A stretch of 64,000 nucleotides of DNA from Amphiscolops sp. MND2022 (lineage: Eukaryota). Shown in pieces: positions 2,889-21,482 of this stretch. The translations under genes were made by a program, and so were the position numbers. The first letter of the stretch is position 1, and every line of letters starts with the position of its first letter. The stretch covers positions 66,156,001 through 66,220,000 of the forward strand of contig OZ076409.1 of assembly GCA_964187785.1 (NCBI GenBank). The letters are read 5' to 3'. The notes under the pieces were generated by a model that saw only the letters and a program-made list of their open reading frames with translations, did no database searches and was not told the DNA's origin.

Positions 2889-4795
2889 TGTCGCACGCAT
2901 GGGTAAATTTACTATTTACTATTTCCTCTTTTCAAGGGACTATTCAGTTGTTATCTGTATTAGTCAGTTCAGCTTCTGTTGCATTTTGCAAAGTATTTTC
3001 AGGCGACCGTTCCTTTATTGACTGGCAGTGAGTAAGAAAGTCTAAATAGCTTACTCTGTGTTATTCTCAAAAGAAGTGCCTTGCGTGTGCGTGCGGACAA
3101 AGGAAATTGCGTGAGTAAGTGCAAGGCTGTGTGCGTAAATGAGCAGTCTGAGGAGAGGGAAAGTATAGGAAATGAAAATGTTGAATTATATCGAGTGAAG
3201 TTACATTAATAAGGAGTGAAATTTACTAGGCACAGCAGTATTTATTCCATCTTTACAATTATCAGTTGTTTCTGAGCCAAAGGGAAACTTGTTTTCAGCC
3301 AAAGTAATATTGCCTTTACTTATTTGAATTTAATGCAAGTTATTCATAAAATTTAGCATCGAAGAAATCATTGAACTTTCATTTCAGTTCAGAAAATTAA
3401 TCAGAATACAAAGTTTACAATCCGTTGTAGCTTGGACGGAAATAGTTTTCTTTTTGTGTCTCTATTCAATTTATTAATTGAGTAGCATCAAGACCTTTAG
3501 TTAAATAAAGTTATAGGGGAAAGTAAGATTATTCCTTCGATTAAATTTATGTAACGTCAGTCGAGTTGACTCATGATTAGACTAGGAAAATAAGTTTCTA
3601 TGTTAAAACCGCTTAACGAATTAGGCAGTAACTTTCCTAAGTTAGAAATTAAGATAACCGCTGAGTGAAATCTGCGGGAAGTTTTCTAAGTTAGAAATTA
3701 AGATAACCGCTGAGTGAAATCTGCGGAGTATTTTCTAAGTTAGAAATTAAGATAACCGCTGAGTGAAATCTGCGGAAAATTTTCTAAGTTAGAAATTAAG
3801 ATAACCGCTGAGTGAAATCTGCGGAAAATTTTCTAAGTTAGAAATTTAGATAACCGCCGAGTGAAATCTGCGGAAAATTTTCTAAGTTAGAAATTAGGAT
3901 AACCGCTGAGTGAAATATGCGGAAAATTTTCTAAGTTAGAAATTAAGATAACCGCTGAGTGAAATATGCGGAAAATTTTCTAAGTTGGAAATTTAGATAA
4001 CCGCTGAGTGAAATCTGCGGAAAATTTTCTAAGTTAGAAATTAAGATAACCGCTGAGTGAAATCTGCGGGAAATTTTCTAAGTTAGAAATTAAAATAAAA
4101 AAAAGGAGAGTGAAAAATCTCCACTGAGAAAACATCTAAGTTATTTTGAACTCACCAAACCGGGGACGAAAATGGACTGAGGAGAATTCTCTAAGATAAG
4201 TTGAGCTTTGCACAAGGGGAAGAAGTGAATTGGGAAGCAAAGGAAATTTTCTAAGATAGAAGTCAAAGAAGGGAAAGGGGGAATGGAAATATAGACTTTT
4301 TTAAGTCTAAGATAAGCTGCCACAAAGTAAGGGGAAAATAAGCAAGAGTGAAAGGGGGAAATAAGAGTTGAGGGAGAGAAGAGGGAGAGTAAAAATAAGA
4401 GAGGAGAAGTGAAGGGAGAGAAGGGAAGAGGGAAGAGAGCTGCTTAAGTTGAGATCAGCCGTTCGGCGGGAAGAGTGAATCTCCAGCCTGTGCGCGTGGT
4501 ATAAAATCAAACCGAGCACTTCTGCTAGCTGGCATGTTTTGCTTGCAACCAATAGTGGCTGTGCTTCATTTTCAAATTTGCGCGGTAAGTAATAGAAATT
4601 TTCACTTGTGCAATTCCTTTCCTGCAGTACTTCCTTATTATTACTTCCCTTTGCGGCCGCCGTGTTATGGCCGCTATTTATTTTATTCCCTTCACTTTCT
4701 TCGCCTTCACACAACGTTAGTTCTATTTCCTGTTTCTTTTATGCATGTGCCATTTCTCAGATAAGAATTGTTAGAGCGTTAGTCATAGCGCGACA
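2889..4795 (-). repeat. 3' LTR of element 1 (1907 bp)
   Basis: Direct repeat of 19718-21482 with TG...CA termini; adjacent to the PPT. Confidence 0.95.
3637..4095. repeat. 49-bp tandem array in the 3' LTR (9 units plus a partial)
   Basis: Unit ctaagttagaaattaagataaccgctgagtgaaatctgcggaaaatttt starts every 49 bp from 3637 to 4029. Confidence 0.95.
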
Positions 4796-4810
4796 GCTCA
4801 CCCCCCTGAC
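4796..4810 (-). promoter_or_regulatory. Polypurine tract of element 1
   Basis: Minus strand gtcaggggggtgagc lies immediately before the TG of the 3' LTR. Confidence 0.75.
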
Positions 4811-4880
4811 AGGGTAAAAAATAAGGTATTTGGGAGAATTTACGGGTTAGGTCAAGAGTGAGGGGATATTCGGAGGAAGG

Positions 4881-5822
4881 TCAAAAAGGATGGGAAAAAG
4901 TTTTAGCACTAGGGATTTGGGGGAGAGGTTTTTCGAATTTGATTTGAATAATAACGGAGTCATCGTTTAGAAAAGCTTCTCTGAAGTTTGCTAGGAGTTT
5001 CGTGTGAGCAATAAAGTCTTCTCGTAGTAGTCCAGGGAGTGTGTATTCGTTGTTGTGGGTGCTGAAATGTTCGTTCATATTGGAGGTGAAGGGGAAAGAG
5101 GCAGACCATTTGTTGTCCTTGTTTTTCTGGTCAAGGAGAGCGATTTCTACTTTGCGGTCGAAAGGCCATGTTCGTGGAAGAGTGAAATCGCTAAGGTGGA
5201 GCTCACAGCAGATTGAAGTGTGAGTCCCTCGGAAAATGTTTACCCCGTATGGGAATATTCGGAAGGATATTTTGTAGCCGGTTAGGTGGGTGTTGTAGAT
5301 AGGGTTCGTGAAGCTATACTTCATGTGGTGAAGGGGATCATCAGGAGATGTTCGGGCCTTCCGGTAGAGAGTGGAAAATGCGGTAATTTGCCATAGGCAG
5401 GGGTCACTGCTTCTGTGGTCGATCGTGTTAACTTTGCCGAGGAGAGAGGCTTGGTGTTTGATGGTCGCTCGTAGATCTGAGGTACCAGTTTCTAACTGTA
5501 GGCGCTTTGTTTTTTCTTCTTCTACCGAGTTGCTGAGCTGTTTCTTTCGGCTTTCTAATTTCTGACGATGTTGGTAGATCTCGGTTATTGGGAATGATTT
5601 CTGTAAGGTAAAATTTGTCGATTTCTTGTGTTGGTTATTCGGGTTCGTTGATGATTCCCATTCGTCTATCCACTTGCTTAGTCTTTTTATTCCCTCTAAA
5701 GTCTCGTGTTCATCAGGGTCATCTGTTCTCGATATGGGTGGCCAGTCGTGGGTATGTTTAGTGGACGTAAGGGTACTTTGTGGGGTAAAGGGGATAGCGT
5801 TTGGGTTTAGCTTGCGATTCAT
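4881..5822 (-). CDS. TRAF-like protein (PAM2-like motif, coiled coil, MATH/TRAF-C domain) carried by element 1
   Basis: Intact 313-aa ORF with TRAF-C motifs LWQITAFS, GYKISFRIFPYG, GTHTSI, WPFDRKVEIALLDQ, FLNDDSVIIQI. N-terminus is KLNPNAIPFTP; no RING or zinc fingers. Confidence 0.85.
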   Translation of the reverse strand: MNRKLNPNAIPFTPQSTLTSTKHTHDWPPISRTDDPDEHETLEGIKRLSKWIDEWESSTNPNNQHKKSTNFTLQKSFPITEIYQHRQKLESRKKQLSNSVEEEKTKRLQLETGTSDLRATIKHQASLLGKVNTIDHRSSDPCLWQITAFSTLYRKARTSPDDPLHHMKYSFTNPIYNTHLTGYKISFRIFPYGVNIFRGTHTSICCELHLSDFTLPRTWPFDRKVEIALLDQKNKDNKWSASFPFTSNMNEHFSTHNNEYTLPGLLREDFIAHTKLLANFREAFLNDDSVIIQIKFEKPLPQIPSAKTFSHPF

Positions 5823-19696: not shown

Positions 19697-19714
19697 GCCT
19701 CACTGGTCGCACCA
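19697..19714 (-). promoter_or_regulatory. Primer binding site of element 1 (tRNA unassigned)
   Basis: TGGTGCGACCAGTGAGGC begins 3 nt after the 5' LTR end. Confidence 0.65.
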
Positions 19715-19717
19715 GTT

Positions 19718-21482
19718 TGTCGCACGCATGGGTAAATTTACTATTTACTACTTCCTCTTTTCAAGGGACTATTCAGTTGTTATCTGTATTAGTCAGTTCA
19801 GCTTCTGTTGCATTTTGCAAAGTGTTTTCAGGCGACCGTTCCTTTATTGACTGGCAATGAGTAAGAAAGTCTAAATAGCTTACTCTGTGTTATTCTCAAA
19901 AGAAGTGCCTTGCGTGTGCGTGCGGACAAAGAAAATTGCGTGAGTAAGTGCAAGGCTGTGTGCGTAAATGAGCAGTCTGAGGAGAGGCAAAGTATGGGAA
20001 ATGAAAATGTTGAATTATATCGAGTGAAGTTACATTAGTAAGGAGTGAAATTTACTAGGCACAGCAGTATTTATTCCATCTTTACAATTATCAGTTGTTT
20101 CTGAGCCAAAGGGAAATTTGTCTTCAGCCAAAGTAATATTGCCTTTACTTATTTGAATTTAATGCAAGTTATTCATGAAATTTAGCATCGAAGAAATCAT
20201 TGAACTTTCATTTCAGTTCAGAAAATTAATCAGAATACAAAGTTTACAATCCGTTGTAGCTTGGACGGAAATAGTTTTCTTTTTGTGTCTCTATTCAATT
20301 TAAAAATTGAGTAGCATCAAGACCTTTAGGTAAATAAAGTTATAAGTTAAAGTAAGATTATTCCTTCGATTAAATTTATGTAACGTCAGTCCAGTTGACT
20401 CATGATTAGACTAGGAAAAAAGTTTCTATGTTAAAACCGCCCAACGAATTAGGCAGTAACTTTTCTAAGTTAGAAATTAAGAAACCGCTGAGTGAAGTCT
20501 GCGGGAAATTTTCTAAGTTAGAAATTAAGATAACCGCTGAGTGAAATCTGCGGAAAATTCTCTAAGTTAGAAATTAAGATAACCGCTGAGTGAAATCTGC
20601 GGAATATTTTCTAAGTCAGAAATTTAGATAACCGCTGAGTGAAATCTGCGGAAAATTTTCTAAGTTAGAAATTAAGATAACCGCTGAGTGAAATCTGCGG
20701 AAAATTTTCTAAGTTGGAAATTTAGATAACCGCTGAGTGAAATCTGCGGAAAAATTTTCTAAGTTAGAAATTAAGATTAAAAAAAGAAAAGGGAGAGTGA
20801 AAAATCTCCACTGAGAAAACATCTAAGTTATTTTGAACTCACCAAACCGGGGACGAAAATGGACTGAGGAGAATTCTCTAAGATAAGTTGAGCTTTGCAG
20901 AAGGGGAAAGAAGTGAATTGGGAAGCAAAGGAAATTTTCTAAGATAGAAGTCAAAGAAGGGAAAGGGGGAATGGAAATATAGACTTTTTAAGTCTAAGAT
21001 AAGCTGCCACAAAGTTATGGGAAAATAAGCAATAGTGAAAGGGGGAAATAAGAGTTGAGGGAGAGAAGAGGGAGAGTAAGAATAAGAGAGGAGAAGTGAA
21101 GGAAGAGAAGGGAAGAGGGAAGAGAGCTGCTTAAGTTGAGCTCAGCCGTTCGGCGGGAAGAATGAATCTCCAGCCTGTGCGCGTGGTATAAAATCAAACC
21201 GAGCACTTCTGCTAGCTGGCATGTTTTGCTTGCAACCAATAGTGGCTGTGCTTCATTCTCAAATTTGCGCGGTAAGTAATAGAAATTTTCACTTGTGCAA
21301 TTCCTTTCCTGCAGTACTTCCTTATTATTACTTCCCTTTGCGGCCGCCGTGTTATGGCCGCTATTTATTTCATTCCCTTCACTTTCTTCGCCTTCACACA
21401 GCGTTAGTTCTATTTCCTGTTTCTTTTATGCACGTGCCATTTTTCAGATAAGAATTGTTAGAGCGTTAGTCATAGCGCGACA
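19718..21482 (-). repeat. 5' LTR of element 1 (1765 bp), with 6 plus partial 49-bp units at 20465-20777
   Basis: Direct repeat of 2889-4795; the length difference is mostly three fewer tandem units. Confidence 0.95.

Follow-up and report, generated by a model that had tools for sequence, protein, structure and literature searches.

Results and Discussion

Organization of the element

The DNA analysed here (the window) is a stretch of 64,000 nucleotides (nt) from Amphiscolops sp. MND2022 (assembly GCA_964187785.1, contig OZ076409.1, positions 66,156,001 to 66,220,000 of the forward strand). On its minus strand, at positions 2889 to 21482, lies an 18.6-kb retroelement which is a Ty3/Gypsy element (Metaviridae) by structure, and which carries an envelope gene (env) and seven additional conserved open reading frames (ORFs), here called the cargo together with a macrodomain in pol and a folded RNA repeat. 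Pfam analysis of this copy detected gag (Retrotrans_gag), protease (PR), reverse transcriptase (RT), RNase H, integrase (IN) with a Tf2-like SH3 end, a Monjiviricetes fusion glycoprotein (PF24664) and a MATH domain, with the pol domains in the order PR-RT-RNase H-IN. All parts listed in an earlier reading of the sequence alone (gag-pol, macrodomain, antisense ORF, RNA repeats, env, an ORF behind env and a TRAF-like gene) were found in this minus-strand element and are common to its copies. The same sequence-only reading called the element giant, a term that does not apply, since the internal region of about 14.9 kb is shorter than the 20-kb internal threshold given in PMC6431247. Coordinates are collected in Table 1.

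The long terminal repeats (LTRs) begin with TG and end with CA, and GTAC flanks the element on both sides as a target site duplication (TSD) of 4 bp. Duplications of this length were also found in all three other copies with both ends within the locus (L023, L029 and L030; L numbers denote loci of the host genome). The LTR pair was 97.3% identical (1714 matches and 47 mismatches in 1761 aligned columns, plus 148 gap columns) in a comparison that ended the 3' LTR at position 4793, i.e. 2 nt short. The gap columns were mostly units of a 49-bp repeat, which forms tandem arrays at positions 3633 to 4098 and 20461 to 20777 and is present in more copies in derivatives of the element. The primer binding site (PBS) of 17 nt pairs with the 3' ends of host tRNA genes, including CCA. 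ARAGORN called a tRNA-Met(CAU) anticodon in L044 and none in L043, and a first search with the PBS pattern matched only the PBS of the element itself. The polypurine tract (PPT) adjoins the 3' LTR, and the same tract occurs in L022, L023, L029 and L030. The pol gene lies in the -1 frame relative to gag, and a TTTAAAC heptamer precedes the gag stop in 4/4 copies.

Stops or frameshifts have broken gag, pol, env, ORFa, the antisense ORF, ORF2, ORF3 and ORF-X in the window copy, leaving only ORF1 and the TRAF-like ORF open. In other copies gag encodes 484 to 490 amino acids (aa) with a CCHC knuckle, and pol frames of about 1850 aa are open.

Table 1. Positions (in the window) and state of the features of the element.
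Feature	Position	Strand	Remarks
5' LTR	19718..21482	-	TG...CA, 6.5 copies of 49-bp tandem repeat
PBS	19698..19714	-	17 nt complementary to host tRNA-Met(CAU) 3' end
gag	17218..18670	-	Pfam; three frameshifted pieces
pol (protease-spacer-macrodomain-RT-RNase H-integrase)	11764..17263	-	Pfam; five pieces
TARG1/OARD1-like macrodomain within pol	15900..16360	-	structure match; broken in window
ORFa	11377..11756	-	paralogue of ORF2/ORF3; broken in window
antisense ORF	10503..11203	+	two pieces in window
ORF1	9733..9954	-	73 aa, open
ORF2	9338..9733	-	131 aa in copies; truncated in window
ORF3	9004..9348	-	113-114 aa in copies; internal stop in window
structured RNA unit 1	8845..8943	-	H-type pseudoknot + variable hairpin + hairpin
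structured RNA unit 2	8677..8775	-	same repeat as unit 1
env	6458..8607	-	Monjiviricetes-type fusion glycoprotein; three pieces in window
ORF-X	5819..6422	-	without Met, preceded by acceptor; broken in window
TRAF-like ORF	4881..5822	-	313 aa, open
PPT	4796..4807	-	before 3' LTR
3' LTR	2889..4795	-	9.5 copies of 49-bp repeat

Copies, subfamilies and derivatives

In the 1.07-Gb host genome, 129 matches to the TRAF-like protein and 64 matches to a natural env were detected, totals that are lower bounds and not copy numbers. Forty-eight of the env matches were full-length, and 42 of these were stop-free. Comparison of two match lists by hand placed a stop-free env together with a pol frame of at least 1845 aa at 18 places. 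The 3' 10 kb was taken from 20 hand-picked copies and the gag-macrodomain part from four. When the collected copies were compared, the order pol, ORFa, antisense ORF, ORF1-2-3, RNA repeats, env, ORF-X and TRAF-like ORF was common to subfamilies A to E, and every cargo ORF was shared. The closest pair of copies differed at 15 of 8040 sites (99.8% identical) and another pair at 30 of 6588, so that transposition must have been recent; the family is multicopy and young.

Two sister families were also identified. Family H is distant (its macrodomain is 37 to 41% identical to that of the window family) and has the order ORF1-like, three paralogues, RNA repeats, env, ORF-X and TRAF-like; no antisense ORF of at least 110 aa was seen within the stretch read. 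With one of its small ORFs as query, 150 genome matches were scored. The 3' genes are the same in family G (L027, L028), with no integrase upstream within the stretch examined.

Other loci contain related elements of different composition. The members of a 6.7-kb non-autonomous family (L029, positions 2992 to 9710, and L030) lack gag, pol and the small ORFs; they have the same PBS, an ORF encoding only a MATH domain, RNA repeats and an env remnant. Their LTRs are related to those of the window element, and identity over 300 nt was reported. Such a MATH-only ORF also occurs in subfamily E, where in L025 (positions 2429 to 2959) a second MATH-like ORF of 176 aa separates the antisense ORF from ORF1 and shares 52% identity with the MATH ORF of the non-autonomous family. 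L022 is a chimera with a 5' part of the non-autonomous type and a 3' part of the window type, and the synonymous rate (dS) differed by ORF between subfamilies, suggesting recombination.

Selection on the cargo

Substitution rates were estimated by the Nei-Gojobori method in pairwise comparisons with one reference copy, using only copies with the respective ORF open and excluding near-duplicates. The ratio of the non-synonymous to the synonymous rate (dN/dS) was 0.02 to 0.37 for all cargo ORFs wherever dS was unsaturated, and 0.04 to 0.11 for gag, integrase and env. Among the small ORFs, values were 0.06–0.25 for ORFa (8/8 pairs), 0.04–0.12 for ORF1 (8/8), 0.02–0.16 for ORF2 (8/8) and 0.08–0.18 for ORF3 (9/9). 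The antisense ORF gave 0.15–0.37 (5/8 pairs, the other three being saturated), ORF-X 0.05–0.28 (6/6) and the TRAF-like ORF 0.16–0.27 (7/8), with an outlier of 0.54 against family G at 19% identity. For the structural and pol genes the values were 0.06–0.07 for gag, 0.07 for the macrodomain (2/3 pairs), 0.07–0.11 for integrase (4/5) and 0.04–0.08 for env (7/8). In a frame control, the annotated frame alone was stop-free and had the most synonymous changes in 7/7 ungapped pairs; the strand of the antisense ORF is therefore fixed. To judge from these substitution patterns, every cargo ORF is shared family-wide and selected for protein function. The cargo is thus neither private to the window copy nor evolving neutrally, two outcomes that the sequence-only reading had named as fatal to its proposal: dN/dS was low for every cargo ORF, and the order is common.

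Small ORFs and the antisense ORF

The three small overlapping ORFs described earlier (ORF1 to ORF3) were verified, and a fourth that had been overlooked, ORFa, was found behind pol; it is 128 aa long in copies and begins 7 to 8 nt past the pol stop. The stop of ORF1 overlaps the start of ORF2 (TAATG). ORFa, ORF2 and ORF3 are paralogues at 15 to 25% identity, and ORF1 is related more weakly. A profile of these proteins yielded 63 clusters at 50% identity, one of which (P0094) is probably spurious; none of the 10 clusters looked up was named.

The fold predicted for ORF3 is a four-stranded meander with helices (pLDDT, i.e. predicted local distance difference test score, 84). It gave no Foldseek match at E 0.001, and the best structural comparison reached Z 5.2 (root-mean-square deviation 2.4, 59 residues aligned), ribosomal uL29-like helices ranking equally with PH domains. 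The antisense ORF (195 to 235 aa) consists of a variable, acidic and Ser-rich N-terminal half and a conserved C-terminal domain of 114 aa. The model of this domain is all-helical (pLDDT 88); none of its 11 homologues was named, and the fold search returned no convincing match (best Z 4.3, 42 residues aligned). The ESM Atlas provided no usable match, with leads at 0.79–0.80. Neither of these predicted models demonstrates a new fold.

The structured RNA repeat

Between ORF3 and env lies a 99-nt repeat consisting of an H-type pseudoknot followed by two hairpins, the first variable and the second with a near-invariant 11-nt loop. Of 414 cells, 97.3% were paired, and seven pairs had changed on both sides, three of them in the pseudoknot helix, counts that are uncorrected for kinship. 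None of 500 shuffles reached the observed value, and slid controls gave at most three. Genome-wide, the loop motif was counted 255 times, compared with 0 for the control. Folding of a single copy without the pseudoknot gave a z of -0.7. The copies examined contain one to four units. Two to four units are retained in the 6.7-kb derivatives without gag and pol, a retention that points to a cis-acting RNA.

Rfam covariance models gave no match over the repeats, which does not exclude membership, and none was found among viral contigs. An RNA model (R1) in which one pair was wrong matched only the two units of the window and not the different repeats of families G and H. Pistol and hammerhead ribozyme, tRNA-like/Pol III and spliced-leader readings were judged by eye and were unsupported. 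In families H and G (L039, positions 4320 to 5060; L027, positions 6758 to 7442) at least five copies of a different hairpin repeat lie upstream of env or ORF1. This repeat has a short GTTTGAY motif in common with the loop of subfamilies A to E, on the opposite strand. An additional pair of units was seen within the integrase region of L017 (positions 298 to 500).

The env protein and the macrodomain

The env gene is separate and lies behind pol. In copies it encodes 714 to 715 aa, bounded by a hydrophobic N-terminus (signal) and a transmembrane (TM) segment near residues 606 to 637, and contains 16 Cys residues. PF24664 was matched with E 2e-9 by each of two pieces in the window, and an E of 6e-34 was also obtained; no other Pfam family was matched and no RxxR motif was present. 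The class III label proposed for this protein would follow from the Pfam family. An F-type env as in insect Errantivirus (baculovirus F-like, with a furin site) was rejected, since only PF24664 matched and RxxR was absent. Chuvirus glycoproteins have reportedly been captured by retrotransposons. As the family is young, the description of the lineage as once infectious may understate the case.

Within pol, the interval between PR and RT contains a spacer, searched with a dUTPase in mind and giving no match in the PDB, followed by a macrodomain that matched TARG1/OARD1 structures with E 4e-10 (E 2e-22 for the macrodomain of family H); Pfam detected no Macro domain in the window family. According to PMC7050489, the catalytic dyad of TARG1 is formed by Lys84 together with an acid in position 125. 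In 4/4 copies of the window family Lys84 is kept and position 125 is Glu, and in the same four copies the Gly-rich diphosphate-binding loop, which is intact in family H, has been replaced. Since this loop is lost, erasing of ADP-ribose by the window family is doubtful. The macrodomain is still selected (dN/dS 0.07) and may for this reason be read as a remodelled binder.

ORF-X and the TRAF-like protein

ORF-X, of about 190 to 227 codons, contains no Met and directly follows a pyrimidine-rich TAG acceptor in 6/6 copies; the ORF of families G and H has an ATG of its own. A donor-like site was present early in env in 5/5 copies of subfamilies A to D and was not present in subfamily E. The protein comprises an acidic N-terminal end, a Pro/Ser/Thr linker, a basic stretch and a conserved C-terminal domain, a layout that suggests a nuclear regulator. 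The C-terminal domain had no Pfam or PDB match, its SH3/Tudor-like look being an impression. The stop of ORF-X overlaps the start of the TRAF-like ORF (ATGA).

The TRAF-like protein is composed of a PAM2-like tip, a putative coiled coil and a MATH domain. The MATH domain was detected by Pfam (E 4e-12) and by structures of TRAF1/2/3/4/5 (E 1e-9 to 6e-6); the alignment to TRAF1/2/5 chains begins at residues 104 to 111, from which the coiled coil was deduced. RING and zinc fingers are absent, with no CxxC in 8/8 MATH proteins of the elements. The host genome possesses a RING/zf-TRAF gene, in which no MATH exon was found within the 8 kb examined. In subfamilies A to E the PAM2-like residues were invariant in 9/9 N-termini except for one Phe. 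The genome also contains a PABP-type MLLE exon (PABP, poly(A)-binding protein) and another MLLE, encoded in a HECT-type exon, which we take to be UBR5/HYD. The complex predicted for the PAM2-like peptide and the host PABP MLLE scored 0.39, compared with 0.02 for the best control, with a contact agreement of at least 84% and a partner pLDDT of at least 54; scores up to 0.60 were obtained for 5 of 78 solved complexes and for all four of the mismatches that passed out of 180. This prediction gives weak support to binding of the host PABP MLLE by the tip.

Proposed function of the cargo and alternatives

The window copy is a decayed member of a recently active, complex-retrovirus-like, env-bearing Ty3/Gypsy family, which probably uses subgenomic RNAs and a cargo of host-manipulating adaptors, a reading that we favour with some reserve. 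Replication follows the ordinary route, as can be seen from priming by tRNA-Met, the PPT, the 4-bp TSD and the -1 gag-pol frame. Subgenomic RNAs would serve to express the cargo, the ORFs within a cassette being coupled stop to start (ORF1 to ORF2 to ORF3, and ORF-X to TRAF-like), with splicing onto the ORF-X acceptor. Splicing and coupled translation are both required by the ORF geometry, in agreement with the complex-retrovirus-like layout first proposed. The pseudoknot repeat may be a cis-acting signal for mobilisation (export/packaging or env expression), ORF-X may be a Tat/Rev-like regulator, and Env would carry particles between cells.

The cargo proteins would be adaptors and not enzymes. 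The macrodomain, which has remained canonical in the sister family, was presumably a TARG1-type ADP-ribose eraser ancestrally and would be a binding or structural pseudo-enzyme in the window family. The RING-less TRAF could compete with or retarget host TRAF signalling (cell-death/innate pathways) while tethered to PABP-rich ribonucleoproteins via PAM2. The accessory targets proposed earlier were ADP-ribosylation, TRAF signalling and PABP; the host does possess a RING-TRAF as well as two MLLE proteins, with weak support for the PABP MLLE, whereas ADP-ribosylation became doubtful with the loss of the Gly-rich loop. Action of a viral TRAF on host death signalling has been described for ORF111L of ISKNV; that protein belongs to a DNA virus, and the accessible part of its description contains no PAM2-like tip (PMC3352826).

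Several observations weigh against parts of this reading, in addition to the altered macrodomain loop. The covariation test takes no account of relatedness, and it was run on the very sequences that had yielded the structure. No splice donor common to all subfamilies was found. The MATH domain is only 21 to 23% identical to those of the sister families, and its alignment does not preserve the Ser-rich groove loop found in mammalian TRAFs. The PAM2-like tip scored 16.3 bits against a Pfam cut-off of 20 and is absent from families G and H; as solved PAM2-MLLE complexes exist, the score of the predicted complex may reflect likeness to such pairs. The dN/dS values are based on open copies only, and kin copies are not independent. 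Moreover, purifying selection indicates a benefit to the element of unspecified kind, and the cargo could serve particle assembly.

This last point leads to the strongest alternative, that the cargo serves the life cycle of the element itself and not counter-defence, which we consider unlikely but a serious contender. The small paralogues and the antisense protein would then be matrix/egress or RNA-handling factors with the RNA repeat as their binding site, and PAM2-MATH would recruit PABP, favouring translation or packaging of element RNA. Such a role would suit the translational coupling of the small ORFs and their position next to the RNA repeats and env, the consistent lack of known homologues among the small-protein clusters, and the remodelled yet conserved pocket of the macrodomain. 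However, TRAF and TARG1 are modules of host signalling and ADP-ribose metabolism, and the derivatives without gag, pol and small ORFs retain the MATH-only ORF, suggesting a host-directed benefit.

Considerably less probable is a ubiquitin-retargeting adaptor, in which the PAM2-like tip would bind the UBR5/HYD MLLE instead of PABP, replacing the RING, so that host proteins bound by MATH are degraded (the logic of Vif and Vpu). The second host MLLE does lie within a HECT-type exon, presumably that of UBR5, and loss of the RING coincides with gain of PAM2 in subfamilies A to E; yet the sister families without PAM2 still have a RING-less TRAF, and the complex test cannot separate close MLLE cousins. 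That the ORFs are neutral hitch-hikers, or arose by chance in a single composite insertion, might be suspected from the many broken ORFs of the window copy and is refuted by the order common across families, the low dN/dS, the frame controls and the covariation, leaving it a negligible probability.

Accessory-gene programmes are thought typical of the complex retroviruses of vertebrates. The favoured reading can be extended to the independent evolution of the full programme in invertebrate Metaviridae, which we put forward tentatively, as rather unlikely in its entirety. It would combine a spliced Tat/Rev-like ORF-X acting on a new pseudoknot RNA, an antisense regulator whose helical fold is new, an accessory family that was duplicated repeatedly and has a new alpha/beta fold, and a TRAF in which the RING was swapped for PAM2, linking death/innate signalling to PABP or UBR5. 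Cell-to-cell spread would be ongoing, and satellite-like non-autonomous elements would retain the RNA signal and a MATH gene of their own.

Comparison with known elements

Complex retroviruses possess a spliced regulator exon behind env, an antisense gene and a cis RNA element (pX of human T-cell leukemia virus, tas/bet of foamy viruses, HBZ). The window element would work in a similar manner, although its RT family differs and no sequence homology was found.

Gypsy elements with a gB-type env are widespread and have been described as 'ancient errantiviruses' by Chary & Hayashi (PMC13524379). The window element resembles them in its Ty3/Gypsy gag-pol-env structure, its env bounded by signal and TM segments, and its recent multicopy expansion in an invertebrate. 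It differs in having cargo on both sides of env, about 3.2 kb on the side of pol and 1.6 kb on the far side; the words 'macro', 'TRAF' and 'accessory' do not occur in the accessible text of that paper.

Closer in content is Burro/GYPSM1 of planarians (PMC6431247), a large Gypsy element with an env that matches mononegaviral fusion proteins and with a MATH_TRAF_C domain, located in a separate ORF in Dugesia tigrina. It was proposed to interfere with apoptosis and ubiquitination, and has a dUTPase-like region between PR and RT. The combination of env and MATH_TRAF_C cargo is thus shared with the window element. Unlike the latter, Burro exceeds 30 kb, and its env lies between gag and pol, in frame with both, as part of a polyprotein of 4,900–5,100 aa. 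The BIR, BCL2, ankyrin and SUMO-like parts of this polyprotein were not found among the ORFs of the window family that were scanned, in which the cargo consists of separate short ORFs 3' of pol.

Macrodomains are also known from epsilon-like endogenous retroviruses (ERVs) of fish (PMC4977317, citing Basta 2009). These belong to the Retroviridae and carry macro as an extra ORF, whereas the domain in the window element is of the TARG1 type and lies inside a Gypsy pol, in the protease-RT interval. The LTR retrotransposons of bdelloid rotifers (PMC5408684) are likewise Gypsy-like elements of invertebrates that possess env and have captured ORFs; the accessible text reports a single ORF3 (env, GDSL, DEDDy) and no multi-gene cassettes. 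The statement that typical Gypsy elements encode only gag-pol, with or without env, therefore overlooked Burro (PMC6431247), the rotifer ORF3s (PMC5408684) and the macro ORFs of fish ERVs (PMC4977317).

In the literature searched, Repbase, Dfam and GyDB being outside the search, no description was found of the arrangement, the small-protein family or the RNA. This arrangement, like several of the proteins in it, seems not to have been described before. The element is less novel than the sequence-only reading proposed: env, TRAF/MATH and macrodomain cargo are each known in other elements. Burro hinted at an invertebrate accessory programme in the form of one polyprotein. The window family has short, individually encoded genes that are multicopy and selected, and each can therefore be tested alone. 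They offer two small folds for which no structural match was obtained, a covarying pseudoknot RNA that is unclassified, and a macrodomain that is canonical and remodelled in sister families, and the retained TRAF module points to host pathways that restrict retroelements in an invertebrate.

Neighbouring features

Positions 53000 to 64000 of the window (plus strand) contain a second, different Gypsy element, which is broken. Its env matched Monjiviricetes weakly (E 0.002), a Ser/Pro/Thr-rich ORF of 429 aa separates pol from env, and the RNA loop motif is missing. Approximately positions 39974 to 47644 (minus strand) are occupied by a third element, of Gypsy-like gag-pol type, in which no env was seen. 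Repeats resembling miniature inverted-repeat transposable elements lie in inverted orientation on both flanks of the 18.6-kb element (positions 1300 to 2000 and 21860 to 22050). A host exon at positions 23058 to 23564 (plus strand), presumably sortilin/VPS10-like, encodes a Cys-rich part and a TM segment. Elsewhere in the genome, five tRNA-Val genes are clustered in L041.

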